64,000 nucleotides of DNA from Gekko japonicus (taxonomy: Eukaryota): positions 432,339 through 496,338 of the forward strand of contig NW_015169198.1 of assembly GCF_001447785.1 (NCBI RefSeq), in the 5' to 3' direction. The position numbers and the translations under genes are program-made. The notes beneath the pieces were generated by a model that saw only the letters and a list, made by a program, of their open reading frames with translations, made no database searches and had not been told where the DNA came from. This document shows, piece by piece, positions 1-64,000 of this stretch. How positions within the stretch are numbered: position 1 is the first letter of the stretch; every line of letters starts with the position of its first letter.

Positions 1-951
1 AGCTTCCATTGTATTCTCTCATTTCAAAGGCTGCAGACAAACTGGTCGAGAAGCATTTCCTCTATGTCTTGGAACTCACAGTGGTGGGTAAGATGGCGGA
101 GTGCTGCCACATATGTGGACATGGACTCCCTGGCCGCCTGATCCCATTTGTAAAAGGCATGGTGGTGAGCAATGTGGGATGGCTGTGGTGAAAAATGGTT
201 CTTTAGAAGAGCCATAATGTTCTTGTATGAAGTGTCCCAGAGTTCGGCCGGTGCCGCGAGACTCTGGGCAATCTTGAAGGTTGCAGAGCCACAGACGCTG
301 AACAGGGTGGCCCGCTTGTGGTCGGCATCAGTGATTTTGTTGATCTCAAGGAAGAACTCGAGATGGTTGGCATAGGTGTCCCATAGTTCTGGGGACGCAG
401 GGTTGAATTCTTTGAGGTGGCCTGAAGTGGCCATGTTTCTTCATCCGCAAAACGACTTGTAGAAGCTCTCAGCAGTGCTCTTCGTCCGGGGCGACGGTTC
501 CCCAGAGGTGATTCAGCTTCTTTGGCCTCTAGCCATGCTAGAAAGATCTCATCCTTGTTGCCAGTGTTAAATAGTGGGTTTAACATGGCAGAGGTGAGGG
601 CATAGTGATTTCAGCAAGCAGCAGTTTATTGCATCTCCACAGGAATGCTTTACATGGGGCAACTGCCCAAACTATAGACACCTAAGCCACTCCCAGCCCC
701 CATGTGATTGGTGAGTTCAAATGGCCTCCAGGCTCCAGATTGGCTGGCTGCCCTCAGGGGCCAATCCTCAGGCAGGTTCCAGGATCCTGCCTGCCTTTGT
801 TCTGGGGCTTCAAGCTCCACTAGGTGGACTCCCCAGACAAGCCCAGACATGCCTCTCCACGCTTCCTCTAAGTGGCCTTCCAGACAAGTCCAGGCATGTC
901 TCCAGCAGCAGTTAAGCTGGAGTGAAAGATTTCTCATTTCCAGACATAACA
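1..951 (-). mobile_element. Ty3/Gypsy LTR retrotransposon 5' end (5' LTR 565-951, PBS 546-563, gag from 434 running off the window edge)
   Basis: On the minus strand the LTR runs TGTTATG...TTTAACA with an AATAAA (tttatt at ~625). It is followed after 1 nt by TGGCAACAAGGATGAGAT, which matches the complement of the tRNA-Ser(GCT) 3' end (TGGCGACGAGGATGGGAT) with three G>A changes, then a gag-like ORF. Confidence 0.85.
24..434 (-). pseudogene. Gypsy gag N-terminal fragment
   Basis: The sequence MATSGHLKEFNPASPELWDTYANHLEFFLEINKIT...KRATLFSVCG...LLKNHFSP...YVAALRHLTHHCEF...LLDQFVC is typical of vertebrate Gypsy gag. It ends in a premature stop. Confidence 0.85.
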
Positions 952-1974: not shown

Positions 1975-2400
1975 TAATAGATAAAAAATTCTCGCTGCTT
2001 ACTTTCTCCAAATCTTGCAGATTTTATAATCTCTGTCATAATAATTACTTCTCCCATGTATTTAAAAAATAACTTTAAAATCTCAAAGTTCTTTGTGGGG
2101 TAAGTAGTCCATTTTTGGAGGGGTAATTTTGTTGCCCCTTTCTGCACTTTCCCCAGCTTTACAACATTTGTTTTAGATGTGGCTACTGGAACTGTAAACA
2201 TGATTCAGAATGTGTGTTTACCATAGATCTCTAGAGGGGCATTATGATGCTGCCAATTTTATTTTCAGTTCCTTTCCTGTTAATATCTAGCATTGTGTTT
2301 GTCTCTTGAGCTGACAGTCTCATTGAGATATCTGGATGCTCCAGGATCTCATCCTGGTTTTTATCTGCCAGTTTAGCCCCATCAGTTGACATGTGAAATT
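1975..2400 (-). mobile_element. Old CR1 LINE ORF2 3' fragment
   Basis: Contains the motif KLGKVQKGATK and resembles the CR1 copy at 19900-20816. Confidence 0.7.
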
Positions 2401-3114
2401 AGGATTCTTTTTCCAGTTGCAAGGCTGGCTCAAGCTACAGGAAGAACTTCTACAACCTGCCTTGATGAATCCTGTGAAGACAGCTATAAAGAAAGCACAT
2501 GCCAACTCTTATGCCACCTGGAATCCATCCAAGGCAAGGTTGGCACAAGAGGAACTTGTATTTTCACCATCTTGAATAATTTGGTGACTTGAAGATGTCT
2601 GATCACCCGATCACCACAGATCAAGGCTGATCAAAAGTTCATATCTCTAAATATCATCAATGGTTCCATTATCAATAAAGGACAGAACCGAAACATTGAC
2701 ATCCTATGCATTGCATGGAAAATACCCATAAAAGCTTAACACAGGAATATGGATGAAGCCTTATCAGTGAAGCTGCTAAAACCAGGTCATCCTAGAACTG
2801 GAATGGGATATTTTCTCATTGCTATTTAAGTTTGTATAATTGCTGTCAATAACTATCAAAATATAGTATGAAGAGAACAGATATGGACAGTTGTAGAAAA
2901 TGCATATCAGAATAATAGGTGGCTGCCCTGTTTTCTTCAATCTTGCCTGACACAATCAGGCTACACAAATCATTCACCAGTCAATTGGGTATGCAATGAA
3001 AACTAACCAGTTCATAATTCTTCCCTTACTAAAACATAGGATGACCACAGATCTTGATAATGATGATGGTAACTTACAAGTTACAAGGCTTATACTTTTA
3101 AAAAGCCTATTAAT

Positions 3115-4297
3115 ATAAGACACAAGTGGGGACCCACAAGAAACTTGCAGAGATGGTGAATCCCTTCCCCCTCTTTGCTTCCTTCCCTCTTTCTCTTTCT
3201 CGATCAATCTGCCCCCTCTTTCTACCCTTCCCCTTACCTGTCTACCTACCCCATCTCTTTTGCCCCCTCCCTTCTCTGTCAATCTACCTCCCTTCTGTGA
3301 TAACCTACCTCCCATTTCCCCCTTTCTCCCATTCCCTTTATCTGTCAACCTGCCCCCTATTTCACTCCTTTCTTCCATCCCCCTTATTTGTCAATCTACC
3401 CCTCATCTCCCCCACACACATTTTCTCCATCAGTCTACCCAACCCTTGCTGCTCTCCCCACCTGCCACCTACTCCTTGTACTTCACTCACCCCCACCTTT
3501 GCAGTCCTCCCCACCTACCCCCCACCCTTAGCAATCCACTCACCCTTGTTGCTCTCCCACCTACCCCCCGGCACTCCACTCACCCACCATTCTTGCTGAT
3601 CTCCCTATCTACCCTCGCTCTTGGTATTCACTCACCCCCACCCTTGGCATTCACTCACTCTAAACCCTTGCTGTCTTCTCACCTACCTCCCACCCTTAGA
3701 AATCAACTATTCACAGGAGGGAATCTCTGAGCCAGCACATCCAGGCCCTAGCACTAACCTCAGGGCCTCACCACACCAGTGTCTGGCTGCCACTCCAAGC
3801 CCCAAACAGCTCCCAGCAGGCGTTGCAGTGACTGGGCCTCAAGTGACTCCCTGTATCCACTGCCATGGCAGCCAGGCCCCAAGCTAATCCTGGTGTCCCT
3901 TGACTTCCCAAGTGTGTCCCAAGTGGCTTCCAGTGTGCACTGTAGCAGCAGCTGAGCCCTGTGCAGCTCCCTGCTTCTGTTCCGGTGGTGGCCAGCCCCC
4001 AAGCAATTCCTGGTGTTCACCAAGTAGGCCTGCCAAGGCTTCCTTATTCTTTGAGCAGGCTTGTCAAGGCCTCCCCCACCTGCTCTCAGTGGCTCGCTTG
4101 GGGTTTGCCAAGGTTTCTTTCACCTCCACTCTTGGCTTCTCACCTGGAGCTGCTCTGAGTGGACCTGTGGAGGCTTCCATTACCCCTTGCTGGCAGATCT
4201 GGCACTCTGTTGCCACAGCAACCACCAGGCTCCTTTCCAGCTGTACTACAGTAAGTGTGTTGCCTGCGCATGTGCATATGTTTTATTATTTTCAGGA
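3115..4297 (+). mobile_element. Probable non-autonomous Helitron/Helentron-like element with C-rich tandem interior
   Basis: 5' end cacaagtggggacccacaagaaacttgc, 3' end tgcgcatgtgcatatgttttattatt, and a low-complexity C/T-rich repeated interior. Confidence 0.4.
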
Positions 4298-5598
4298 GTA
4301 ATTTAATCCCCCCAAGTTTGCAGAAAAGCCTGTGTAGAGTGTGTCCCCTACCTGCAGATTTAGATATTTACACATAGGGGGCACAGTTGGGACTTAGCTA
4401 TATAGATTAAAATTGATTATTACAATAGACCAGGCATAATGATGTCCAAACATACAAAGAAGCACAACTAAAACAACTACTTTTTCAGGTTTTTATCTAT
4501 TTTGTTTTAGTCACGAAGAAATGTACAAAAATGACAGCTACTATTATAGTGAATGCAATTCTTGTACCAAGTAACACTGGAAAATCTGATGATAAAACTA
4601 AATAAACACTAAAAGCTATCCTTGGAAATAAAATGTCTTTAGAAACGCAAGACAGTTCATATTGTCCCCTCTCGATATAACCTTAAGGAGTAATTCCAAG
4701 TACCCTGAAGCAAAATTTAGAGAGAATACATCCACCATAGTTCCTATTAAAAACAATGTAAAAAGCTGTCATTCTCCAGACTTTCCTACAGCTAGGATTT
4801 TTCTAAACATTGATTGACATCCTTGCACAACAAGGCTTGAAGTATTAGATCTCTGTCCAAATAATCAGTAAAAGGGTGTGGGGGGGAGATAATGATGATA
4901 ACAGTGATAATATAAAATTATTGAAAATGTTATTTTTTCTTAGTAATTTTTAACAACATTTGTAAAGCATAAAAGTGTCAGACGTGATCTACACCTCTAA
5001 AATTTTAAAATCCTGTTGAGCAGCTTTAATGAGCGATATAAGAATTTTTTTTAAAAAAATCACTAATGAAATCTGCAGATGCTCATTGTTTTGCTGTTCT
5101 TGATGACTCCTGTGGAACTGTAATGTTAAGCTTAGTTACGAGTTTTAAAGATTTACTTGAACTTTGATTGATATGATGTAAGAATGATGAAATCAGTGAT
5201 GACCATGGAAATTTGCCACATCTAGATTTTCATATATCTAAAAGTGACCCAAGGCCAGCTCATAATTGGTATGAATTGAGCCACTTAGGAGTATTTTTCA
5301 TACAGCATGAAATCAGAGCTTTCTTATACCTATTTTTAAAGAAGTTTTTTATTTTTATACCTATTTTTCAAGGCCACTGAGATATGGATTTTTCTTTTTC
5401 TTTTTTGAGCTGAGTGAAGCTACATACAGAATGCGTCTATTTAGAAGGACTTTTATTATCGTATTTTTGGCCCTTAGAGACTGAGATGATAGTTTTAGTT
5501 TATTTACTGAACTCTAGTTTTTTATGTATGGAAACTGTTTTAAACCAGTGTGTGGAAAGCAGTAATAAACATATCAAATAAATAAAATGAAAGGTGAA

Positions 5599-5687
<89 letters not shown>
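5599..5687. repeat. Compound (AT)n(AC)n(GA)n microsatellite
   Basis: Directly visible. Confidence 0.95.
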
Positions 5688-5689
<2 letters not shown>

Positions 5690-6439
5690 AAAACAAAAAG
5701 GCAAATCCTAATTATTCATTGTAAGTATGCACTGAACCATACTAGAAATTCCGTCTTTTTGTCTTCTTTTTCATGTGATGGGTATATATGTAGCTTGGAG
5801 CAGGGATTGTTGCCTGTGGGCAGTGCTTTGCTCCCAGTCTGACCCATGCCAGAGGGCCAGGTGGATAGCCTGTCTATTCTGTGAGCACCCTTGCCCATGG
5901 GATATGGGGGGACTTTCAGGCCACTTGCCTCTAGTACAGGTGTGCTGTCACTGAGTCTTTCTTCCCTGTCTGCAGAGGAAAGTTATTGGGTGCTTCTGCC
6001 TTATTGGTGGGTGTTGCCTATATTGCTATGGACTCCAACATACTGAGTATACTGTCTACATTAGAGGTCCCCAACCTTCTGGCACATGGGGACTGCATTA
6101 GAGTGTCCAATGCCTAAAGAGAGCCACATCTTAAATCAAAGTGTAAAAAAATATTAACCTACCTATTTAGATCAAAAGTTAACTTTCAGAGGTCAATGAA
6201 GAAATGTTAACTTGAATGCAGTCCATTTTGGAACAATATTTTTCTGTGGAATCCTTTTATCTAGCTACACATACTTACCTAGTCAGTGTGATTTTTGGGG
6301 CTGTTTTCTGTTAGTCAAGGCATTAATGTCCAAGTCAAGGTTTGTGACAGACTCCCTTAAAATGTCATGTAAATGTTCATCTGTAAGTCTTGACCTAAAC
6401 TTGGATTTCACAATTTTCATCTTGGAATTTTTTTTTTTG

Positions 6440-6520
6440 AGTAAAGTGGTACCTTTGAGACCAACAAAGTTTATTTAAGGCATGAGCTTTCATGTGCATG
6501 CACACTTTTTCAAACACATA
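6440..6520 (-). mobile_element. Penelope-derived non-autonomous fragment with degenerate hammerhead ribozyme
   Basis: Minus strand reads ttgaaaa-agtgtgcatgcacat-gaaagctca, a hammerhead layout (CUGAnGA-stem II-GAAA-NUH) with a mutated core. Confidence 0.5.
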
Positions 6521-7015
6521 CATCTTGTTCACATATGTATGTGGTGCCAAAGACTGTGAACATGCCTGCAGAAAATTTCTTTAGGTTGATAAATATGTCA
6601 GATAGACTAGAATAGAAATCTAACAGATTATTTTCTTTGTAAATTTCTCTAAGATGATGTAACACTGGGTTGCAAATCAATTAATTCCATCTGGAAAAAG
6701 TTACTTGCATCTTCTGGTGCTACTTCAGATGTATTCTGAAACATTCTCATTTCCTTTCCATGCTTATGGCAATCAGTGAATCTGTTCTGGAATTCCACCT
6801 GGAATAGGTTCAGTGCCTTGATGTGACTTTCAACACTGAATTGTAAATTCCCATCCTTCTCAAATTCTAATCCACTGCAGCATGAGAAATTTGAAAAGTT
6901 GCTTCACAAAAATGTTTAGGTTATGGGATACCTCCTTACATATAGACCTTTCGAGAATCTCATTGTCCCTGGAAGTGGGAAGCAGATTAAAAAAATTTAT
7001 GATTCCTAACTATCG

Positions 7016-8608
7016 GCCATGATAAAGGACAAAAATGGTAGGGACCTAACAGAAGCAGAGGAAATTAGGAAGAGATGGCAATAATACACACCAAAAAAAA
7101 CTGTACAAGAAAGACCTTTACGTCCTTGACACCCATGATAGTGTGATCACTGACCTCGAGCCAGACATCCTGGAGTGCAAAGTCAAATCGGCCTTAGAAA
7201 GCATTACTAACAACAAAGCTAGAGGAGGTGATGGTATCCCAGCTGAGCTATTCAAAGTCTTAAAAGATGATGCTGTTAAAGTGCTGCGCTCCATATGGCA
7301 GCAAATTCAGAAAATGCAACAGTGGCCACAGGATTGGAAAAGGTCCGTTTACATTCCGATCCCAAAGAAGGGCAATGCCAAGGAATGTTCAAACTATCGC
7401 ACAATTGCACTCATTTCACACACTAGCAAGGTCATGCTCAAGATCCTACAAGCTAGGATTCAATGGTACCTGGATAGAGAACTGCCAGAAGTACAAGCTG
7501 GATTTCGAAGAGGTAGAGGAACTAGAGATCAAATTGCCAACATAAAGCCTCTGTTTGTGTGGATCACAACAAGCTATGGCAAGTCCTTAAAGAGATGGGA
7601 GTACCAGACCATCTCACATGTCTCTGGAGAAACCTGTATAAGGGTCAAGAAGTGACAGTTAGAACTGGATATGGAACAACTGATTGGTTTAGCATAGGAA
7701 AAGGAGTACGACAAGGATGTGTATTGTCACCCTGGTTATTTAATTTATATGCAGAGTACATCATGCAAAATGCTGACCTGGATTAATCACAAACTGGAAT
7801 TAAGATTTTCGGGAAAAACATCAACAACCTCAGATATGCAGATGATAACCACTCTAAAGGCAGAAAGTGAAGAGGACCTAAAGAGCCTCTTGCTCAGAAT
7901 GAAAGAGGAGAGGGCAAAAGTTGGCTTGAAACTCAACATCAAAAAAACTAAGATCATGGCATCTGGCCCCATCACTCCTTGGCAAATAGAAGTCATGGAA
8001 GCAGTGACAGAATTCACATTCCTGGGATCCAAGATCACTGCAGAAAGTGACTTCAGCCATGAGATTAAAAGACGCCTGCTCCTCGGGAGGAAAGTTATGG
8101 CAAACCTAGACAGCATAATAAAAAGTAGAGACATCACCCTGCCAACAAAAATCCGTATGTTCAAAGCAATGGTATTCCCAGTAGTCATGTATGGCTGTGA
8201 GAGTTGGACCATAAGGAAGGCTGAGCACCGAAGAATAGGTGCTTTTGAATTATGGTGCTGGAGAAGACTCTTGAGAGTCCCTTGGACTGCAAGGAGATCA
8301 GATCAGTCAATCCTAAAAGAAATAAACTCTGACTGTTCCCTGGAAGGCCAGATACTGAAGCTGAAGCTCAAATACTTTGGCCACCAAACAAGAAGGAAGC
8401 ACTCACTGGAGAAGACCCTGATGCTGGGAAAGATTGAAGGTCAAAGAAAAAGGGGATGGCAAAGAATGAGATGGTTAGACAGTGTTGTCGATGCAACGAA
8501 CATGAAATTAAGCAAATTCTGGAGGATGACGGAAGACAGGAGGGCCTGGCGTGATGTGGTCCATGGGGTCGTGAAAAGTTGGACTCGAATGTGCGACTGA
8601 ACAACAAC
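7016..8608 (+). mobile_element. BovB (RTE-clade) LINE, 5'-truncated, frameshifted
   Basis: RT motifs WPQDWKRSVYIPIPKKGNAKECSNYRTIALISH, GVRQGCVLSP, and C-terminal MYGCESWTI...LKYFGH...LEKTLMLGKIEG. Ends in a (CAA)n tail at ~8601-8608. An internal deletion at ~7543 removes the stretch between RDQIANI and VDHNKLW. Confidence 0.95.
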
Positions 8609-16340: not shown

Positions 16341-17798
16341 CACATACCAGGTACAAAGTAACAAAATCACTTCTGCCACCAGGTGTCTCTGAGCAGCCTT
16401 CAGTCTCATTCCTTCACACCTCTGTGCTTTCCAGTCTCATTGTGTCTTGACTCCCTGAGGCTGCTTTGGAGATTTGCATCCCTGCCCCCCCCCCCCGCTG
16501 CCCTGGGCAGCATACCTCTTCAGGAGTTCTAGGGCTGGATGTTTTTTCTGTGTCTGAATGCCCCCAGCCCTTAATCCCTTCTCCTTCCCCTCACTCCTTC
16601 CAGACTCTTTCCACTCCTTGGCTCCCTCCTCTATTGGGAAGACTTGACTGTCCTTTGGGGCTGTGCTGAGATTCAGCTGGCTGCACAGGTCCTGGAGATA
16701 GCCCCCAGCTGCCTTGCCATCTGTGCCTTGCCGATTAAGCCAGACCATTGGCTCTCCTTGCCAGGAGCCACCGCACACCATCCACGACTCCAGTGCTTCT
16801 TCTTCTGCCTCACCTCCCTCCTTTCCTGGCTCCCAGCTGCTTTTTGAACATGCCGCCCTGCTCACCAGAGTGATTCCTGCCATTAAGTTGACATCTCTGC
16901 ATTCCTTCTGGCCTGGCTGTTGGGTTTTTTTTTTTGCCATGCTGTCAACAGTAGGGATGGGCACAAACCAAATCACGAAGCAAAATCCATCATGAATTTT
17001 GCCCTGTTTGTGGTTCATGAACAGAAGTTTGTGATGGGTCGGTTGTCATGAACTTCCACAAACTTTTGTGGCTGTTTGTGGCGGTTCATGAGTCTGAGTC
17101 CCTTTAAACTTGTGCTTTCTGTTCCACACAAAAGCTGCAAAAACAGCTGAGCAGTGGGGAGGAGCTGTCTTCTGCTGTCCCTTTAAACGTTAAATGGACT
17201 GCACAAGACAGCCAAAAACAGCTGACCAGCGGGGAGCAGGCTGTTCCCCTTTGCTCAGCTGTTTTTCAGGCTTTCTGCAAAACCCATTTAAAGGGACTGT
17301 GGGCCCTTTCAGTGGGGGTTGCGGGGCCACAAACCGGTTTGGTTCGTGGTTTGTAGTTCAATTCATGGCTCAGCCAGGAACTGACAAGAACAGCATTGCC
17401 CCCCTAGCTGGAATAAGAGACAGACACATATGTTGGGTTAATTAATAGGCCACTTTTATTAACTTTTGATATTAACTGAGAAAACTGTAAGGAAAAATGG
17501 CAAGGGCAGAAACTCTTTGCGGGATAGTAAAGTCACCAAGACACCCTCTCTTGCCATGTAAATTAGGGTGAGCCACCCTGCCCCAGCCAGCACAGCAATC
17601 AGGAAATCACCCTGGAACTCCATCCCCTGAGCTGCGAGGCTCCAGGGCATTCCCAGGGGCAGTCTCTTTTCCCTGTCCCAGGCTGCAGGGCACCAGACTC
17701 TCTATACACCCAAGCTGGGTGTCAGCTGTTGCTCACCAGCCCACAGTCTACATCTGAACACAACCCTGCCACTGCCACTGCCAAGGCCAAGCCTCTGC

Positions 17799-18380
17799 TT
17801 AGGCCCTTGCGCCCACCAGAAGGCTCAAGGCCACCCGCAGACCTTGCTGCAGATCCTCCAGGAATATGTCCATACCCATTTTGGAAAGATGGATACCCTC
17901 ATTCCTGTGCAAATGACAACAGCTGGCATGAATATCCTGGTGAGGCAAAAATTGGCCAAAGCCTCCTTCAAGAAACCTCTGGAGCTCCCTAGCCACCTTG
18001 CGGTGTGCTTTGTCAATTGCCAGAGGGTTCCCTGCCCCGTGCCACACCAAGCATGGCACCATAGCAGACCAGATGATTAAGGTTCCAGGCCACTGCCTCC
18101 TAATGAGCTGAAAGTCAGCCCGGGCCTGAAGGTTCAATGCCTTTCCTTTCATCAGACCCAAATCGTTGCTGCCCAGAGGAATAAATTAAACATGGGGGGG
18201 TCCAACCCTCCCTTCAAACAATAACTGCAACAAACTGGTCCACTGCAAGCCATGGCATCCCAGCCACTCCACCATAGCCTACCAACTAAGACCCAGCTGT
18301 AAACTGATGGGCGTCCGCTTTGTTCGGTGAGCAGCCCAAAATACAAAACTGTGTCCTCAGATGAGAATTCTCTTCCTCTC
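17799..18380 (-). pseudogene. SGNH/GDSL hydrolase-like ORF of the YR retrotransposon
   Basis: Hand translation shows block I ILI*GHSFVFWA, block II WLGCHGLQW, block III LGSNDLG and block V EGIHLS. In-frame stops are present. Confidence 0.75.
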
Positions 18381-18457
18381 CACTGGACATCAGGACCTGG
18401 AATGAAACAACAGTGAGCAAAGGAACAACACTTCAACTCAACCTTGCTGAGACCTAT

Positions 18458-19440
18458 TTAGAGCCTCACCATGGGCCGCACATATGACTTGCAAGCTGAC
18501 GAGTGCCACCTTCCCCGGTGCTGAATGTCCCGAGCCATATAACCCATAGCTGCTGCCATGGAGGCAGCTCCAATGCAGTAGGAATGGGTGCAAAAATGCA
18601 TTCCAGCCAGCCCCAGCTTCGCCAGTGCCTTAGAAGTGACTGCCCAGAATTGGTGCTTGGTCAGAGGGCTTGAATCTTGATGATGAAACAACAGACCACC
18701 CTCCAACCCCGACCACCAAATAGGCCAACGCAGAAACTGAGCACAACTTCTCAGAACATGCACCCAGCATGACCAAAGAACCCTGCTGTTGCTGATCTGT
18801 CTTTGACTGCTGCAGGGTAACTGACCACCAAATAGGAGGCCAACGCAGAAACTGAGCACAACTCCTTCTCAGAACATGCGCCCAGCGTGACCAAAGAACC
18901 CTGCTGTCGCTGATCTGTCTTTGACTGCTGCAGGGTAATGTAAGCCTTGTTGGCAACCAAATGCACATCCTGCACCCTCAGTGCATGAGCGGACCCATCA
19001 CTCTTTGACTGAGCAACCAGCTTGTTTATCCAAAAAGCCCCACAAATTGCAACCAGGGCAGCAGCGTGAAATAAACAGGCCTCAAAATTAGATGAACAAA
19101 CATCGCTCCAAGTAGCCTGGAGGCCCCTAAGAACTGAGGGAGACATAGGACACCTGGGGTCATCTCATATCCAGCCCTCCTATATCCTATGCATTCGGAA
19201 CTCCCCTGTAAATTCAGCCACGCCCCGGGCTTTGCTAGCGTAGGCTACTGTGGACAGCATTCCTTTAATTGAGCTAACCGCCAAGCCCCTACCTTTCAGC
19301 ACAACACAAAAGTGTAAAAGATGATCCACAGGAACCAGCCACGCACTAGGGTGCCCTACCTCTTGCCTGAACTCAGCCAACTGGCAGACCGCATGGTCAT
19401 ACGCCCGGTTTTTTGCCTGGAGCAATGGCTAGCCCCATCA
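18458..19440 (-). pseudogene. Tyrosine recombinase (YR) ORF, frameshifted
   Basis: N-terminal domain HLLHFCV...LAVSSIKGMLSTVAY. C-terminal HSYCIGAAS (H-x-x-R box with R mutated) and GRWHSSACKSYVRP containing the catalytic Tyr. Confidence 0.85.
18711..18938. repeat. ~112-bp tandem duplication within YR ORF
   Basis: gaccaccaaatagg...gactgctgcagggtaa at 18711-18820 and 18823-18938. Confidence 0.9.
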
Positions 19441-19463
19441 CCCTGTGCACTTTGGCTCTCCAA

Positions 19464-19900
19464 CTAACCAGAGTTCTGGTGGCATTTGTACTGGCTGTAA
19501 GTTGGCTTCTGAGGCCAGCTGACAGAACCTCTCCATCTGTTTGCAAGAGAGAGTGTCAGCCACCCCATTGTCAATCCCCAGCACATGCATAGCAAAAAAC
19601 CCAGAATATTAAGCCACAGGCAACGGAGCATGGAGGCTCTTACCAATAACATGACCTGCTGTGATTTGGATGTGAGGGAATTAATGACCTGAACCACTGC
19701 CAAGTTATCGCACCAAAAGTGGACCATGTGGTTGGCCAACTGCTCTACCCACAACCAAACAGCTACTAAGATAGGAAAGAACACGAGGAAGGTAAGATCT
19801 TTTGTCATTCCAGCCCCCACCCAATTGGCAGGCCATTCCTCAGCACACCAAAGCCCCCTGAAGTAGACTCCAAAGCCCAAGGATCCAGCAGTGTCAGAAT
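19464..19900 (-). pseudogene. DIRS-type RNase H domain
   Basis: YSDTAGSLGFG...W...DLTFLVFFPILVAVWLW...FWCDNLAVVQVINSLTSKS. Confidence 0.85.
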
Positions 19901-20816
19901 AAGAAGCCATTGTTGGATCAGTCCACTGGCCCATCTAGTCCAACACTCTGTCACACAGTGGCCAAAAATACCAGGTGCCATCAGGAGGTCCAGCAGTGGG
20001 GCCAGGACACTAGAAGCCCTCCCATTGTTGCCCCCCCCAAGCACCAAGAATACAGAGCATCACTTGCCTCAGCCTCATCTATACCTTGTGGCTAATAACC
20101 ACTGATGGACTTCTGCTCCATGTGCTTATCTAATTCCCTCTTGAAGCTGTCCTTGCTTGTAGCTGCCGCCCCCTCCTGTGGCAGTGAATTCCATGTGTTA
20201 ATCACTCTTTGGGTGAAGAAGTACTTCCTTTTATCTGTTCTAACCCGACTGCTCACCAATTTCATTGAGTGCCCATGAGTTCTTGTATTGTGAGAAAGGG
20301 AGAAAAGTACTTCTTTCCCAACCTGCTCTATCCCATGCATAATCTTATAAACTTCGATCATGTCACCCCTCAGCCATCATTTCATCAAGCTAAAGAGCCC
20401 CAAGTGTTTTAACCTTTCTTTACAGGGAAAGTGTTCCAACCCTTTTATCATTTTAGTTGCCCTTTTCTGCACTTTTTCCAATGCTATAATATCCTTTTTG
20501 AGGTGTGGTGACCAGAACTGTACACAGGACTCCAAATGAGGTTGCACCATTGATTTATACAGGGGCATTATGATACTGGCTGATTTGTTTTCAGTTCCCT
20601 TCCTAATAATCCCCAGCATAGCGTTGGCCTTTTTTATTGCAGTTGCACACTGTCTTGACATTTTCATTGCGTTATCCACTACGACTCCAAGATCTCTCTC
20701 TTGGTCAGTCTCTGCCAGTTCGGAACCCATCAACGTGTATTTATTGTTAGGATTTTTGGCTCCAATGTGCATCACTTTGCACTTGGCCACATTGAACCCC
20801 ATTTGCCACATTGACC
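19900..20816 (-). mobile_element. CR1 LINE 3' fragment inserted in Ngaro pol
   Basis: WQMGFNVAKCKVMHIG...ERDLGVVVD...LEKVQKRATKMI...MIEVYKIMHG...RKYFFTQRVINTWNSLP, followed by the CR1 3'UTR ggactagatgggccagtggactgatccaac. Confidence 0.95.
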
Positions 20817-21960
20817 TTTGCAGCCAGGCCTCAAGCACTTTCAGCTTTATGGGGCTGGGTCCCTTTTCCAGCAGATTGGCCAGGCCCAGCCCCTTCCAGC
20901 TTCCTGCAACCCTTCCAGGGCTTGCCTCAGAAGCAAGCTGAAAAGGGGTGGGGTCCACTATGCAGGGGACACTCATGTCGGTACTGGCAAAAAATTTTAC
21001 TGCACATGCCTAGCGACCCAGATTCCCAACATATCTGGTGGGGTTGAATCGCCTACCCCACGGAACCATGGGAACCAAGTGAGCAATACATGATGGACCA
21101 AGTGACCACTGTGAGATCGATCACCAAAGTTCACTCGAACCAGCGCCATGACTTGCAGACAAAGCTATGGGTTTATCTGATCCCACTGCAAGGCTGGCTG
21201 CATGGCTGTCCTCATCCTGAACTCTTTGTCGTACTGTAGCCAGGTGGAGCCAGTGAAACCCGTATAGCCCTTGTAGATGATGTCAAAGTACTGGAACAAT
21301 GATGCCATCCTCCAAGGCTGTGCCTTTGCCAGCAGTCCCACATAAATTAGAAAACCAGCCATCTAATTTTCCCAGGTCCTGTCCACCTTCATCTTTTTCA
21401 ACTTCTCCTTGTCCTTGTTGTCTAAATCCTTCTTCTTCTTTTTTTTCCGATTTAATTGTTTATTGGGTTTTTAAAAGCCTCCCGATAAAGTAGGGTAAAA
21501 ACATCTATGTAATCTCCTTTACAAATCTTTTTCCCTGGTAGCCGGCAATAAATGGTCACCAAGAGGGAGGGCCAAATCCCTGAAGGGGATAGCTGAGGCA
21601 GGCACGGCTGCGTAGGCAGGACCCCATGGAGATGGACCACCCCATCAAGGTGCCCCTGGCATGTTAGAAGCCTGTATTGCTGTACAACTCAGGGCTCCCT
21701 GGGTGGCAGCATGTGTAGGCTGGTCAGCCCAAGGCTGCCAAGGACCCTGGCTGTATGAAGGATTAGCCTGGCCAGGAGGCACCGCTGCAGGAAGAGGCTG
21801 GCTCCACCAACGCCCCCAAGGCCAAGGCCTCCACCCATGATCCATGCTGCTCTACCACCACCGGTAACCACTGCCACTCCTTTTCTTACCATACAGCCAC
21901 ATGCTGGTAGCCTCCTCTGCAGCCGCCCTTTCCACCGTTCATCATCACCCCCCACCACCG
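20817..21960 (-). pseudogene. Ngaro/DIRS gag plus pol N-terminal stub
   Basis: KGDYIDVFTLL, then WLQYDKEFRMR...WDQINP, a zinc-finger-like ICWE..GMC..FCQYRHECP....HP, and then SPIKLKVLEAWL, the usual start of the RT region. Confidence 0.8.
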
Positions 21961-22399
21961 CAATGCCACCTAGGGCTGCAGCATCACTGCTGCTACCTCC
22001 CCTTGCTCAGTCTGAGGCTCAAATGGCTGGTGCAGCTCTCACAAGCATTCTCCCAGACTGAGCACAGGGCGAAGACTGGCCCTTGGAAGGTGGGGCCAGC
22101 TGAAGAGGCTCCAACCCCGTCCACCATTAGAACCCCATATGTGGTCAATTGCCGCAATAGACTGTCTCTCCTGGCAGGGAGGGAAAGGAGACTTCCTGTC
22201 CCCACGGCCACAAGGGCTGGCGGCCGCTGAACCGAATTCTCCTGGTTCATGCCCATCCCTAGTCAAGAGCACCTCAACACTGCCCAGGCCCTGTGGAGCC
22301 ATCCAAGCATCCACAACTTCCTTGGTACTCTTCCCTTGATTCAGATGTAGGAATCCATGATAACTGGGTTGGCTTATTGTCTCTGCACATGGGGTGACA

Positions 22400-22780
22400 T
22401 GACTATTGCATAAGAAATGATGATTTTAGCTAAGGAGAGATGATTTTAGCAAAAGGAAGTCACTGAAAAAAAAAGATAAAGTAAGGAGGAAGGTTAACAA
22501 AGAGTCTAGTAAAGAAGATGCAGACATTTTGGAAGCACAAAAACAGTTTGTAGATGTTTCAGTGGAAGAAGCAAATAAACACTATGCAGTGAGGGAATAG
22601 AAGGGGAAGAAGGCATCCAGGAGAATATTAGAGGTATAGTGGAGTTCAGAAGGTTCAGTAAGTTGAATAGTGAAAGATGAGTTGAAAGAAGGGGTTGGAA
22701 AGATTTATTCTTCCTTTGACATATTTCATATCTCATTTAAGATGACAGTGAAACATAAAGGAAGAAATGTCAGCAAGCTA
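22400..22780 (-). mobile_element. Possible ancient L2 fragment
   Basis: Purine-rich plus strand with a Leu/Ser/Pro-rich minus-strand translation typical of decayed L2. No diagnostic motif. Confidence 0.3.
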
Positions 22781-24199: not shown

Positions 24200-25375
24200 T
24201 CTCCGGACCATCAATGAACTGTGAGTTGAGTTAAACCAAAATGCCGGGAACTTAAAAGAAGGCACCCCCTGGGAATGGTAAGACGAGCGAGCAGGGGAGG
24301 GGCCCCTCCCATGCGCACAAAGAATTAAAAAGCGATTTGCCAAGGGGGAGCAGAAACAAAAGCATTGAAATCTGTTTTGAGAGATCAACGAGACTTTAGT
24401 AAGTTTTAGAAAAGTAAACAATCCAAAAATGGCGGGCAAAAAAATGGAAAAAGACAGACTAGCAAAAGTGAAACCACCGGGGAGCATGAGCCCGCGGCCG
24501 GAACATACCACTGAGTTTTCTAAACTGCTAGCGTACTCTTTGTGCCATCTACTGGACCAGATGATAAACATCAACCATCTGATGACCAGATGACGAACAT
24601 CAACCAACAACTGACAGCCTAAAACCAGAATTTTGCCCCTCAGCAGCTCCAACTGACTGAGACTACAAAAAAAAAACCCAAACAAAAAACAACGGAGCAA
24701 ACAGCTGAGAAAGTGAAGGAAATGGATGCCAAATCTAAAAAGGTTAAGAAAAAGGTCCAAATGTTGGAAAAGAAACAAGCTTCAGACGAACTTCAACTTT
24801 TACAGCTACAAATGGAGAAAGCTAACTTAGTCTTCTGGTTCCAAGGGGTCCTGGAAGCAAAAGAAGAGAATCTAAAGCAACTTTTGAGCGAAGTGTTAGC
24901 TCCATTTACAGATTTAAAATCGGAATACTTTGCAAGTGAAATGGATGTGGTTTATAGAGCCTATTCCGTTTATATCAAGAAAAATAATCTGCCTGGAGAG
25001 ATAGTGGTCAGATTCTCAAAGAGACATGTGAGGGATCAAATCCTAAAAGCAACTACAGGAACGCCCTTGAAAATTGGAGGCAACACTATCAGGATTCTAA
25101 AAGACATTCCATTTGAAATAAGGAAGAAGAGGAAGAAGTATAAAGACTTGATTCTGTTTTTGCAAACAAACAGCATTTCCTACAGATGGTTGACCCCCGA
25201 AGGTATCATTTTCAAACTGCTGGATGAAAAAGAAAAAAATTGACTCTGTTTCCAAAGCGCGTGAGTTCCTGAGACTGCAACTGGGAGAGTCAGGTGAGGA
25301 CGGCAAGGAAGAAGACAGCAAACCTAGTGATGAAATGGACTTTGCTACTTCCGATGAGGACTCTGCTTCCGAAAA
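24200..25375 (+). mobile_element. L1-clade 5' region and ORF1 (coiled-coil plus RRM/CTD-like), no ORF2
   Basis: ORF 24713-25243 ...LPGEIVVRFSKR...IRILKDIP...SYRWLTPEG resembles L1 ORF1/L1TD1-type domains. Frameshift in an A-run. Confidence 0.75.
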
Positions 25376-35024: not shown

Positions 35025-36060
35025 GATTTATTTATTTTTTTATTATTAAATTTATACCCCACCCTATCCAGCCAAGGCCGGCTCAGGGTGGCTTACAGAA
35101 AGAATAAAACCACAATAAATAATTTAAGCATAAAACAATTCAGCATTGAAAGGTGCTAACAAATTGACATTTCAAGTTAAATTTACATTTAAGTTTAAGA
35201 TGGTGGTCGGCTTTCATTATACCATCCTAGTGATCGACCCAGATCTAACATTGTGAGGCTGGCGCAGGCTGATCAGGGAGCACAGTTCTCCCTTGGGGCG
35301 GCTCCTAACTGAAAGCCTGGTGGAAGAGCTCCGTCTTGCAGGCCCTTCAGAACTGCATAAGATCCTGCAGGGCCCTGATCTCCTCCGGGAGCTCATTCCA
35401 CCAGAGAGGAGCCACCACCGAGAAAGCCCTGGCCTAGATTGTATGGGGAATGGCAGTCCCTCAGGTAGGCAGGTCCCTGACCATTAAGGGCTTTAAAGGT
35501 CAAAAACAGCACCTTGAAGTGAATCCGGAACGCTATTGGAAGCCAGTGCAATGACTTCAGCACAGGCAAGGGCTTTAAAGGTAAGAACCAGCACCTTGAA
35601 GCGAATTCGGTATGCTATCGGTAGCCAGTGCAATACCTTCAGTACAGGCTTAATGTGCTCCCGCATTGGGAGGCCCATTAAAAGCCTGGCTGCAGCATTT
35701 TGCACCAGCTGTAGCTTCCGGATTTGCAACAAGGGCAGCCCCATGTAGAGAGCATTAGAGTAGTCCAATCTCGTGGTGACCATTGCATGGATCACTGTTG
35801 CCAAGTCGTTGCGTTCAAGGAAGGGAACCAACTGCCTAATCAGCCGAAGATGGTAAAAGGCCGACTTGGCAGTGGCTGCTACCTGGGCCTCCATTGTTAA
35901 GGAGGCATCCAAGAGCACTCCCAAGCTCCTAACCTCCAGCGCTGGCACCAACAAAGCCCCATCAAAGGTCGGGAGTGGGATCCCCTACCCTTGGTCCACC
36001 CTGACTCAGACACAGGACCTCCATCTTCATCGGATTCAGTTTCAGTCGGCTCAGCCTAAG
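35025..36060 (-). mobile_element. L2 LINE 3' fragment (chimeric, two subfamily pieces)
   Basis: SLGVLLD...RLDYSNALYMGLP...KLQLVQNAAARL...LHWLPI. The 3' tail is at ~35030. Confidence 0.9.
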
Positions 36061-46700: not shown

Positions 46701-47198
46701 GTAGGGGGGCTCCCACTACACATCTTTCTGCCAGACCCTCCCCAGATTCTGAACATGCAAAGGTACCTGATATGAGTCTATATATCTGTCTGCCTGGCAT
46801 GCCAACCCCCCCACTACACTACCTTCCTCCACCATGCATGTGTGTGCTCCCCTCACTGTCAGGCACCTCCATTATTTTCTCTCCTTCCCCCCTCCTCCAT
46901 CCAGTGCCCCCCATCCAGTGCCCCACCACCAAAAATCATCTGGCTACAGTGCTGGTTGTAACTTGGACCCCATAAATCCAATCCTCACCAAAGCTGGAGG
47001 GTAGATAGAGGAGAGTCAGCTGGAGCTCCCCAGCAAGTTGGTGTCTCTAGCACACCAAGGGGCCTTTCTACTGCATCACAAACTTCATGAACCAAACCAG
47101 TTCATCTAGTGCAAAAAAGTTTGTGATAGTCCATGTTTTGCCAACCCACATGCCACAAACCATGAATCAAACCACGTTTCCTGGTTTGTGGCCATCCC
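43712..47198. mobile_element. Large foldback-like hAT non-autonomous element
   Basis: TIR tagggatgggcacaaacca (19 nt identical to 16952) pairs with tggtttgtggccatccc. Long inverted arms (about 45250-45790 vs 46000-46560) and modular ccaagtttggtgaggattg repeats. Confidence 0.75.
43857..45073. mobile_element. LTR-like insertion(s), apparently two oppositely oriented solo LTRs, in the left arm of the foldback element
   Basis: Absent from the mirror right arm. TG...CA ends (tgtcag...gtaca; tgtagg...atgaca) and TATA-like motifs on opposite strands at ~44091 and ~44633. Confidence 0.45.
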
Positions 47199-48556
47199 AG
47201 TGGCAGTGGGGGAGCAGCTATCCAGAAGGCACCCACTAATTTGTGGAGTGCCCCAAGGAGTGGTGCTTTCCCCAATGCTATTCAACATCTATATGTGCCC
47301 CCTTGCCCAGATTGCCCAGAGGCATGGACTGGGTTGTCACAAATATGCGGATGACACCCAGCCCTATCTGTTGTTGGGCGGCCAGTCAGACTCTAGTCTG
47401 GGAGATCGGGACCTGGCGTTGAAACCTTTGGCTGGTTGGCTTACACTGAGTCGACTGAAATTGAATCCAATGAAGACAGAGGTCCTATGCCTGAGCCAGA
47501 GTGGACCAACATTAGGAATCCCTCTCCCGACCTTCAGTGGGGCACCATTGGTGCCAGCACCAGAGCTCAGGAGTTTGGGAATGCTCCTGGATGCCTCCTT
47601 GACGATGGAGGCCCAAGTAGCAGCCACTGTGAAGTCTGCCTTTTACCATCTATGGCTGATTAGGCAGCTGGTTCCCTTCGTTGAACGCAATGACCTGGCA
47701 ACAGTAATCCATACAATGGTCACCTTGAGATTGGATTACTGCAATGATCTCTACATGGGGCTGCTCTTGTCCCAAATCTGGAAGCTGCAGCTGGTACAGA
47801 ACACAGCAGCGAGGCTGTTGCTGTGTCTTCCTGTGCGGGAACACATCCAGCCCGCCCTAAATGCACTGTACTGGCTGCCTATAGCATACCGAATTCGGTT
47901 CAAGGTGCTGGTTCTTACCTCTAAAGCCCTATATGGTCAGGGACCTACTTACCTAAGGGACCGCCTTTCCCCCACATGTTCCCCAGAGAGCACTAAGATC
48001 GGGGTCCCAAAACCATCTGGCCCTCCCGGGGCCTAAAGAAGCCAGGCTAGCAGTGATGAGGGCCAGGGCCTTTTCTGTGGCAGCCCCTTACTGGTGGAAT
48101 GAGCTCCTGAATGACATCAGGGCCCTGCAGGACCTTTTACAGTTCCACAGGGCCTGCAAAATGGAGCTCTTCCACCAGGCCTTTGATTAGGGGCCACCTC
48201 TTAACATCGAGGCTCTGGCCCTCCAACATCAGCACCAGCTTAATATCTTATGGCCTGGCAACAATTCAGACTGTGGTGGCAATTTGGCTATCTATATGCT
48301 GAGACAATGCCGCTACCATTTATTAGTATTACTAGCAGTAAAGCCCGTTGTGCAAATGACAATGTTGCTACCATTTATTAGTATTATGTTTGCTAGCACT
48401 TGTTTGCACATGTTCTGGTTTTAACTTTATTACTGTTTTAATGCTTTAATGTATCTCGCTGTTTTAATATATTTATACTTATACATATGCTGTAAGCTGC
48501 CCTGAGCCTGCCTGGCAGGGAAGGTGGGATATAAAATAAATAAATAAACAAACAAA
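47199..48556 (+). mobile_element. L2 LINE 3' portion (RT C-terminal half, 3'UTR, tail)
   Basis: GVPQGVVLSPMLFNIYM, YADDTQ, LKLNPMKTE, RLDYCN and KLQLVQN motifs, with an (AATA/AAAC)n tail. Confidence 0.95.
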
Positions 48557-61734: not shown

Positions 61735-62279
61735 ATAACTAGCAGTAAAGCCCGTTGTGAAAACAATACAACGAGATCTAGAAAGATGTGATGTGTAAGA
61801 AATGCATAGGCTGGAAGGAGGTAAAGTAAATATTAGCAGTCTGTAAGTGAAAGATACAAATGTGGAAATAAAGTTGTAGCCAGCCTCATCAGCCCTGAAC
61901 CTGGGGTGGTTTTTCCCGAGAGAGAGACATCCCAAAAAACGACCTCTGAACCTCCACAAGCAGTGCCCTATGAAGCCAGGGTTGGCTTAAACAATGGCTT
62001 TTGCTGGGAGGCTAGGAAAACCACGTCTTGGCTGAGAAAACTCAGGCCAAAGAGAATTCTCCAGGCTGGCTGCACTGCCAGGCACCCTCCATGCAAGCAA
62101 CCCCCTCCCCCTTCACATGTCTCTCCTATCAGCTCTGCCCAAAGAGGACTAGTCTGGGCAAGTCTCTGCCCTCGCCTCAGGCATATTCCACTGACCAAAT
62201 GGCGAGTCTTTTGTCTGTCAAAGGTACAGGCAGGCAGGGACAAAAAGCCTCTGGTCTGTGCTACTGTCATGAATGAAGT
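61735..62279 (+). mobile_element. Helitron/Helentron-like non-autonomous element 5' part (ends in gap)
   Basis: actagcagtaaagcccgttgt...acaacgagatctag forms a subterminal hairpin. The same end occurs at 48331. Confidence 0.55.
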
Positions 62280-62401
62280 NNNNNNNNNNNNNNNNNNNNN
62301 NNNNNNNNNNNNNNNNNNNNNNNNNNNNNNNNNNNNNNNNNNNNNNNNNNNNNNNNNNNNNNNNNNNNNNNNNNNNNNNNNNNNNNNNNNNNNNNNNNNN
62401 N

Positions 62402-62925
62402 CCAATTCTGATGAGGAATCTTCTTCAGATGATCTGGTTTTATCCGATTCTGAACTTCTCGAGCCACGTGAGCTGTATTCTCCTTCTTCTTGATGACTTT
62501 TCTCTTCTGCTAATATTTCCTTTGGTAGTCCTTGAACTTTCTCAAAAAATTGTTTTGCTTTATCAACAGAGTCAATCTTTTCTTTTACATCCTTGTACTT
62601 GAATGTTAACCCTTCTGGTAGAAGCCATCTGTAGCTAATTGATTTCTTTTGTAGAAATGTAGTTAAATCTTTGTAATATCTTCGCTTTTTTCTGATTTCA
62701 AATGGTACATCCTTTAGAACTCTTATTTCCGACTCTTTAATCTTCAAGATGTTTCCATTGGTAGCTTTGAGAACTACGTCTCTTGTGGACCTTTTTGAGA
62801 ATCTGACTATAATTTCCCCAGGCAGGTTTCTCTTCTTTATGCATTTGGGGTATGATCTATCGACCACATCCAAATCGCTTAATAACTCTTCATGTTTCAT
62901 ACCTGTCATTGGGGCTAATGCTTGA
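62402..62925 (-). mobile_element. L1-clade ORF1 fragment (related to the 24713 ORF)
   Basis: LPGEIIVRFSKR...IRVLKDVPFEIRKKR...SYRWLLPEG. Confidence 0.78.
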
Positions 62926-64000
62926 GTCTAGTTTTCAGTTATTCCTATAGAGATGTGGCATCACGTCCAATGGTGTCCCCTCAGGTCCCCACCCCTTTGG
63001 ACTCCCACTAGCAACTCTACATAGCAAACATTTGGAGAGAGATTGACCATGAGCACTGTGCTTTTCAACATATATGAGAAAGCATGCAAAGCAGATATAT
63101 CCAATTTTGTGTCTGACACATCCAAACAGTTCACTGATCAATCGGCTCCCAGATGCAGCTCATAAGAAGTATTTGGGCTGAACCAGAAGGTGCATCTCTA
63201 TCCCAAAGGCTGGTGCCTAGAAGGCTGCAGTGAGGTTGGGGGAACCAGGCAAAATTGCTCTCCCATCCTTTTCAGTCAGTAAAAAATTTCACAGGCACAA
63301 AAAACTGGTTACCCCTCCTCAGTGCAGACCCTAGGTGACTGTCTAAGTGAGTCCCACAAACCCCAGCATCAGCATTTGCATTCTGCAGACCTGGAAAACA
63401 GGGGAGAACATTATCTGCAGGTGTGTTTAAATGTCTTTAAAGCCTATACTGTCAGGACAGAATAAACCCAGCTACAACTTACACTTCGGCTTTGATGGAC
63501 ATACTGTTATCTTCCTGACCTAAAATCCAAGCCTGTGTAGAATTACGTTTTGGACAGCGGTCCTCAAATGGGCCTTTTAATTCCAAATTGTTTTAAACTT
63601 TTATTTTAAAATAAGAGGCTGCATTCATAACAAGGAGCTAGTCATTAATGGAAATCTGTACCAAGTCTGCACCTTGGTAAGGTAGCTAATCCCAATGCCA
63701 TTTCCTTCAGCTTTGGGACTCAAACCAGTTGGCCGTGTATGGCTATTTTGCTGGGAGAATCACAAGGTCATGTTACCTTTAAAGTTCTGTTTCCCAGAAA
63801 GTGAGAGGGAGTGAAAGATGAGACAGGGCAAAGAATGGCTTAGAAGATACATCCATGACAGACACCTCATCCAGCCAGAACACATAGTCCATGTTCACAC
63901 AGCACAGCTTCATTTCAGATTGACACTTCTGTGAAAAACATTTCCTTCAATTACACTGCTGGAGCACTTCAGGAACACTGAGAAACATTCTTATTCTATA

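Follow-up and report, generated by a model that had tools for sequence, protein, structure and literature searches.

The element and its insertion site

We analysed a stretch of 64,000 nucleotides from Gekko japonicus (contig NW_015169198.1, positions 432,339 to 496,338 of the forward strand; hereafter "the window"), in which a tyrosine recombinase (YR) retrotransposon carrying an SGNH/GDSL hydrolase sequence occupies positions 22238 to 17395 on the minus strand. We read it as a dead element of the Ngaro type whose intact relatives likely express the SGNH esterase spliced onto Gag residues 1 to 135–141, a reading that we consider probable as a whole. Translation of 17300–22400 and comparison with L108, an intact relative elsewhere in the genome, give the minus-strand order gag C-terminal part, pol start, RNase H, YR and SGNH, with amino acid identities to L108 of 60% (gag), 66–70% (RNase H), 48–68% (YR) and 64% (SGNH); these identities of 48–70% bear out the order gag, RNase H, YR and then an SGNH frame that a sequence-only reading of this DNA had proposed. 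The nearest relative of the window copy is L031, with 74–80% DNA identity.

The element stands, with AAT at both termini, in an AAT site within a small non-autonomous DNA transposon (resembling a miniature inverted-repeat transposable element) whose 19-nucleotide inverted arms are at 22243–22261 and 16952–16970. The left end of this host transposon (22239–22261, minus strand) and its remainder (16952–17394, minus strand) are joined directly in empty-site sister copies (e.g. L122 and L125), which run unbroken through the insertion point; they fix the AAT overlap and thus the extent of the element, 22238 to 17395. The span 17392–22228 given by the sequence-only reading was therefore in the right place, with ends 3 and 10 bases off. 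The host transposon gave 3,321 first-look candidates genome-wide, of which 40 were scored, at 71–85% identity. The AAT at both ends fits the shared-trinucleotide signature of YR insertion known for DIRS elements, as described in the relevant part of PMC7192593.

All parts of the window copy lie on the minus strand. The 5'-most is the A1 terminal repeat (22050–22238), which begins with the target-shared AAT, is 83% identical to the 5' end of L031/L177, and matches the A repeats of the solo units L178 (72%, E 5e-16) and L179. When this 5' end was used as a query, three further places came up, of which two are solo units whose B repeat also matches that of the window, so the window 5' end is a true A repeat. 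It is followed by a remnant of the 5' untranslated region (UTR; 21826–22049), after which the copy lacks about 1.2 kb relative to L031 (the alignment to which skips from 2314 to 3559), a deletion of 5' UTR and gag sequence that took the start of gag and the splice donor with it. The candidate ATGGTAAG at about 21890 was ruled out as a surviving donor, since it aligns with the L031 5' UTR instead of the donor. The C-terminal part of gag (20837–21825; tblastn 60% to residues 431–692 of L108 Gag, with a DNA match to L031) has frameshifts and seven listed stops, and contains a Cys/His zinc-finger-like pair at about 21037–20935. The overlapping pol start (20818–21075) matches residues 4–89 of L108 Pol and the next match comes only from residue 455, the reverse transcriptase (RT) domain being lost. 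In place of about 1.1 kb of RT there is a 914-bp 3' end of a long interspersed nuclear element (LINE) at 19902–20815, which is younger and high-copy (39 other scored copies at 91–94% among 10,657 candidates) and which, from its tail motif, we take to be of the CR1 type. A sister copy of this LINE piece, L172, has RT coding sequence upstream of it, and L031 has 1.1 kb of element DNA at this place instead.

The RNase H domain (19450–19901; 66–70% to L108 Pol 455–604) has one frameshift. The YR gene (18458–19540) is dead by comparison with L108: the frame is shifted and has stops at 19182 and 19167, a tandem duplication of 118 bp lies at 18722–18938, and two positions of the catalytic tetrad are altered. 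(A 117-bp duplication of near size is found in the YR gene of L110, at oriented positions 6140–6403, in a different place.) A predicted splice acceptor, a pyrimidine tract with AG at 18398–18397, occupies 18397–18416; this motif recurs in most of the scoreable copies, and the window copy has retained it while its donor is gone. The hydrolase exon (17799–18396; 64% to the intact L108 SGNH, whose kinship with Lipase_GDSL_2, PDB 4C1B and SGNH folds is given below) is broken by stops at 18359, 18281 and 18188, so that the separate hydrolase open reading frame (ORF) claimed by the sequence-only reading is not open here. The single B repeat (17395–17775) ends in GGC-AAT, contains AATAAA at 17460–17455 and matches the B of solo unit L178 (68%, E 1e-53); A2, the spacer and a second B are absent, and no self-repeat was found in the window copy. 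The deleted gag start, the RT replaced by a LINE 3' end, the frameshifted YR and the three stops in the hydrolase had all gone unrecorded in the sequence-only reading. The window copy is a dead new member of its family and does nothing itself.

Two apparent similarities between the ends of the window copy were set aside. The weak direct similarity between 5' and 3' regions that had been proposed as a relic of split repeats is due to chance: its score of 20 compares with a mean of 17.7 for shuffled sequence, and 103 of 500 shuffles scored as high. It also pairs an A repeat with a B repeat, which in intact copies are unrelated to each other. An inverted match, in which the 3' end of A (22088–22054) is weakly complementary to a segment of B (17682–17646; 2 of 500 shuffles), has no counterpart in L115 and is not relied on.

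Intact relatives and split direct repeats

At first look, DNA and protein searches of the genome returned 1,262, 3,317 and 5,273 candidates; 40, 150 and 119 of these, respectively, were scored, and the figures are not copy numbers. The family as examined consists of 78 distinct places, the window included. Relatives with intact gag, RT/RNase H, YR and SGNH ORFs are indeed present. L108 (G000:C14002, + coordinates 2056–7964) has A1, all four ORFs open and a single B, and its ORFs match the Pfam families RVT_1, Phage_integrase (E 3e-7, in YR, together with Phage_int_SAM_1) and Lipase_GDSL_2. The B repeats of L107, L109 and L110 are 99.5% alike with that of L108, so the family was recently active. 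The zinc fingers that had been read into gag are visible in L108 as a Cys/His pattern (C-x8-C-x4-C-x3-H plus C-x2-C-x3-H-x4-C), which no Pfam zinc-finger family matched. Apparent open frames of 1,000–1,900 amino acids (AAs) resembling fused polyproteins proved to be runs of N and were discarded. In L114 (oriented 3167–3821) a tandem array of about ten 67-bp units lies inside gag, and in L031 the SGNH end is cut off by foreign DNA (about 7530–8400) with a GDSL-like motif, seen by eye, that resembles a LINE ORF1 esterase.

The full layout A1-ORFs-B1-A2-spacer-B2 is found in L115 and L116, where A1 and A2 are 95% and 89% identical, respectively, and B1 and B2 94%. The A repeat is about 170–190 bp, B about 420 bp and the spacer between A2 and B2 180 bp. 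Counted by hand, the B end could be scored at 55 of the 78 places, the motif having failed at the remaining 23, the window among them. Of the 55, 47 stop after one B, whereas 8 go on into A2 and/or the spacer and a further B. Searching with the spacer sequence recovered 30 loci, which fall at 28 places: 22 are solo A-spacer-B units, and the others are four full elements, one head-to-tail double solo and one B-A-spacer-B without nearby ORFs. Hairpin formation across the B1-A2 junction was inconsistent among four junctions (z +0.41, -1.16, -2.23 and -1.40). The near-intact young copies, together with the prevalence of single-B and solo forms, make plain why Ngaro ends are missed by repeat libraries.

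Assignment to the Ngaro group

The Ngaro order of gag-like, RT/RNase H and YR genes is intact in L108, and the window copy keeps the C-terminal part of gag, RNase H and YR; the Ngaro split direct repeats, A1-ORFs-B1-A2-B2, are present at the level of the family, and the window has A1 and one B. An SGNH hydrolase after YR, as in the Ngaro elements of amphibians, is present in the family. No methylase match was found among Pfam matches to L108 Pol, which ends 36 AAs past the last RNase H motif. The sections of PMC9210276 on Xenopus Ngaro describe the same components (gag-like, RT/RNase H, YR and SGNH ORFs, the A1-ORFs-B1-A2-B2 repeats and no methyltransferase), and report the hydrolase with its function unproven. 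There A is 236 bp and B 152 bp, against about 170–190 and about 420 bp here, and our family differs further in its squamate-type host, its thousands of candidate copies, the 180-bp spacer between A2 and B2, and the death of the window copy. Because Ngaro with SGNH is already published for Xenopus in that paper, the novelty implied by the sequence-only reading is reduced; its proposal of a hydrolase-bearing, Ngaro-type YR lineage in a lizard is upheld by the hydrolase in other copies, by the split repeats of relatives and by the closest named homologues, which are squamate.

The DIRS1-like elements outlined in PMC7192593 are likewise YR retrotransposons with overlapping ORFs and a shared trinucleotide at both ends, but their inverted terminal repeats, internal complementary region and methylase are absent here. 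No terminal inverted repeats were found in the window copy, L108, L115 or L116, only a local palindrome of 29 nucleotides in L108, and the repeat layout that had been suggested as a means of separating Ngaro from DIRS1 thus comes out on the Ngaro side. The split direct repeats alone are also found in PAT-like elements (PMC9210276 and PMC6681497, in the parts that deal with them), and it might be argued that ours is a PAT-like or other split-repeat YR lineage which gained its hydrolase independently of the amphibian Ngaro elements. A search of the genome with RT returned close family members only, without an outgroup. We think an independent gain very unlikely indeed, as PAT and DIRS encode a methylase (PMC7192593, in its account of these groups) that was not matched in L108 Pol, and the SGNH domain has amphibian homologues at 38–42% identity. 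Ngaro fossils are reported to predate the amniotes in the part of PMC9004415 that treats them, and in the relevant text of PMC4350176 Ngaro is named only in passing. Our literature search found no account of a squamate Ngaro hydrolase or of its splicing; Repbase, supplements, Goodwin and Poulter 2004, and Poulter and Butler 2015 lay outside that search and may hold such families.

The SGNH hydrolase domain

The sequence-only reading had listed four SGNH blocks in the window copy, GHS, G, GxND and EGIH, and these stand where they were placed; block I is GHS in the family as well, but block V is DGVH in the relatives, the window copy having Glu for Asp. When the window's own fragments were compared with Pfam the sole match was a weak one to Phage_integrase, and the open 128-AA piece of the hydrolase had none. 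Intact relatives match Lipase_GDSL_2, below its curated cut-off. A profile of 20 sequences compared with solved structures gave as its first match the esterase of the LINE ZfL2-1 (PDB 4C1B, E 7.5e-8, 23% identity); the Atlas grouped the hydrolase with SGNH clusters at 0.98; and the predicted structure (mean predicted local distance difference test score, pLDDT, 89.9) has as its listed top Foldseek matches SGNH-fold proteins, with template modelling (TM) scores of about 0.7. The identity of the domain is confirmed by profile and predicted fold as applied to the intact relatives.

The catalytic Ser, Gly, Asn and Asp-x-x-His positions have top-residue frequencies of 0.90–0.94 over the 78 places, against a column median of 0.81. 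The median ratio of nonsynonymous to synonymous substitution rates (dN/dS) among 21 intact SGNH ORFs is 0.10 (111 of 210 pairs usable, 88 saturated and 11 too close), and that of the YR control is 0.08 over eight pairs; the pairs are non-independent and dS is near saturation. Judged by these ratios, the SGNH domain is under purifying selection. The 43 homologues found (lengths of 107–342 AAs were searched) are mostly squamate, as are the closest named ones, and two named amphibian homologues have 38–42% identity.

A predicted spliced Gag-SGNH protein

The hydrolase is probably a spliced exon rather than a stand-alone gene, and the gag donor is likely, from the arrangement of the signals, to be joined to the SGNH acceptor. 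The SGNH frame has no shared start: there is no upstream Met in 40 of 62 copies, and no Met position is common to more than five. On the other hand, an acceptor (pyrimidine tract and AG) lies exactly 47 nucleotides before the catalytic Ser codon in 49 of the 62 scoreable copies (elsewhere in 9, absent in 4), and in 21 of 26 copies gag has an in-phase GGTRAG donor at a shared position, after 135–141 codons. This donor sits in a variable part of gag and is the sole in-frame GGTRAG within 461 codons of L108, where donor and acceptor stand at + coordinates 6596 and 3099. Nine of the 43 homologues are models of 325–342 AAs, from the squamate genera Eublepharis, Heteronotia and Elgaria, in which a Gag N-terminus is joined to SGNH, and five of the nine have the acceptor codon as the exact start of their SGNH match.

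The "fourth ORF" of drawings in the literature implies something else, namely that in these Ngaro-type elements the hydrolase is a separate protein, made from its own start, by re-initiation or by readthrough from YR. An in-frame Met is in fact present upstream of the catalytic Ser in 22 of the 62 copies, but these fall at 19 different positions. In L114, L112 and L117 the YR frame runs on into the SGNH frame or abuts it, but in L107–L109 a stop immediately precedes the acceptor and there is no Met. RNA from three raw-read runs and three contig sets, in which coverage was thin and from mixed copies, gave no donor-acceptor joint among the joints listed, with a depth at the donor of less than one read, a result compatible with a separate protein; for L108 itself no RNA data set was listed. 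Since the acceptor is conserved in a non-coding gap, in phase with the gag donor, we regard a separate hydrolase as improbable.

The missing RNA joint also belongs to the points that weigh against the reading that we favour, that of a Ngaro-type element with a spliced Gag-SGNH protein. No spliced retro-copy was found among 119 scored of 5,273 candidates. The fusion models may not be independent of the splice signals, because automatic gene models may use those same signals, and the donor also encodes Gly-Lys, so that protein constraint could contribute to its conservation. Copies were picked by similarity, which inflates conservation. The intact SGNH ORFs score 25.6–27.9 bits in Pfam, under the curated cut-off of 32.9; Ngaro membership is supported by ORF order, repeats, the SGNH domain and the absence of a methylase match rather than by a tree of RT/RNase H from labelled Ngaro and PAT elements; and any membrane role of a Gag-esterase is by analogy.

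By the known biology of the group, the RNA would begin in A1 and end in B, RT would copy it, the internal B1-A2 junction would be used to rebuild the ends, and YR would recombine the joined end with a host AA(T) site. One RNA run contains 10 and 9 molecules with a start or end 23 nucleotides past the AATAAA of B, consistent with a poly(A) site. A second, spliced RNA would run from the gag donor to the acceptor before SGNH and skip the zinc fingers, RT and YR, so its product would retain the Gag N-terminus with the esterase in place of the RNA-binding end. On the analogy of the ORF1 esterase of ZfL2-1, such a fusion might assemble together with full-length Gag and act on membrane lipid by binding or hydrolysis. 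That esterase hydrolyses esters and binds acidic lipids, and was proposed to target the ribonucleoprotein (RNP) to membranes (PMC3905857, in its sections on activity and model); it is like the predicted fusion in having an SGNH triad and in placing an esterase on an RNP-forming protein, but ZfL2-1 is a non-LTR (long terminal repeat) element with an unspliced coiled coil-esterase ORF1, 23% identical, and its activity was shown whereas the Ngaro domain here is known from sequence and model. The Vesta LTR retrotransposons of bdelloids have a GDSL ORF3 in an env-like 3' position comparable to that of the esterase here, and PMC5408684 notes that expression of ORF3s is typically from spliced messages; Vesta elements are integrase-type, and the passages of that paper on them mention no Gag fusion. 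Nor do the sections of PMC9210276 that cover Xenopus Ngaro mention splicing of the hydrolase.

The papers cited leave open what the Ngaro hydrolase does, and it is there that the present family matters: the predicted fusion of about 335–340 residues defines the protein to express and the junction to seek. If true, the splice would make this a further retroelement that attaches an esterase to a particle-forming protein, and would support a general membrane step in retrotransposition.

Repeat collapse and solo units

During insertion or later, the B1-A2-spacer-B2 array would usually be reduced to a single B; recombination between the repeats, of the kind that produces solo LTRs, is the most likely cause. 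Free-standing AB units are known from Cafeteria Ngaro (PMC8547959) and as the SIRE of Trypanosoma VIPER (PMC6681497), where the parts concerned propose a recombination origin or leave it open; here the reciprocal single-B coding form has been counted as well and is the majority (47 of 55). The collapse might instead be the work of the element's own recombinase: before insertion it would cut at both of the identical B|A junctions, and the solo unit would be a mobile passenger. Both products are abundant with exact ends (single-B 47 of 55, solos 22 of 28), the young, near-identical L108–L110 are already single-B, and one head-to-tail double solo (L146) exists. However, recombination between repeats after insertion yields the same products, no permuted copy (with the spacer upstream of the ORFs) was found among the examined family loci, and short-read assembly can collapse identical 420-bp repeats, many young loci being gapped. 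We regard cutting before insertion as possible, though unlikely.

A little less likely again is the wider proposal that Ngaro combines two Gag isoforms made by alternative splicing, one RNA-binding and one a membrane-directed esterase, with split repeats that its own recombinase resolves into two units, coding A-ORFs-B and non-coding A-spacer-B, each integrating separately. If true, the two isoforms would mirror both the spliced env message of retroviruses and the ORF1p esterase of LINEs.

The double solo L146/L151 (G000:C7844) has the structure A-spacer-B-A-spacer-B; its B copies agree at 100% and its spacers at 99.5%, but its two A copies at only 90%. It may represent a non-autonomous form or be an artefact of the assembly. 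At L107 (G000:C10068) B2 is 4% different from B1, while B1 and A2 are near-identical to those of other young copies; this diverged B2 was dropped as a sign of site-specific cutting because the locus has a gap and a 1.26-kb duplicated flank.

Other features of the window

An ORF at 24–440 (minus strand) has a weak PNMA match (E 1e-4) and is probably a remnant of a gypsy-type gag. LINE reverse transcriptase remnants with RVT_1 matches lie at 7050–8600 and 47110–48036 (both plus strand), and more LINE-like pieces can be seen by eye at 24623–25243, 35493–35984 and 61968–62927.

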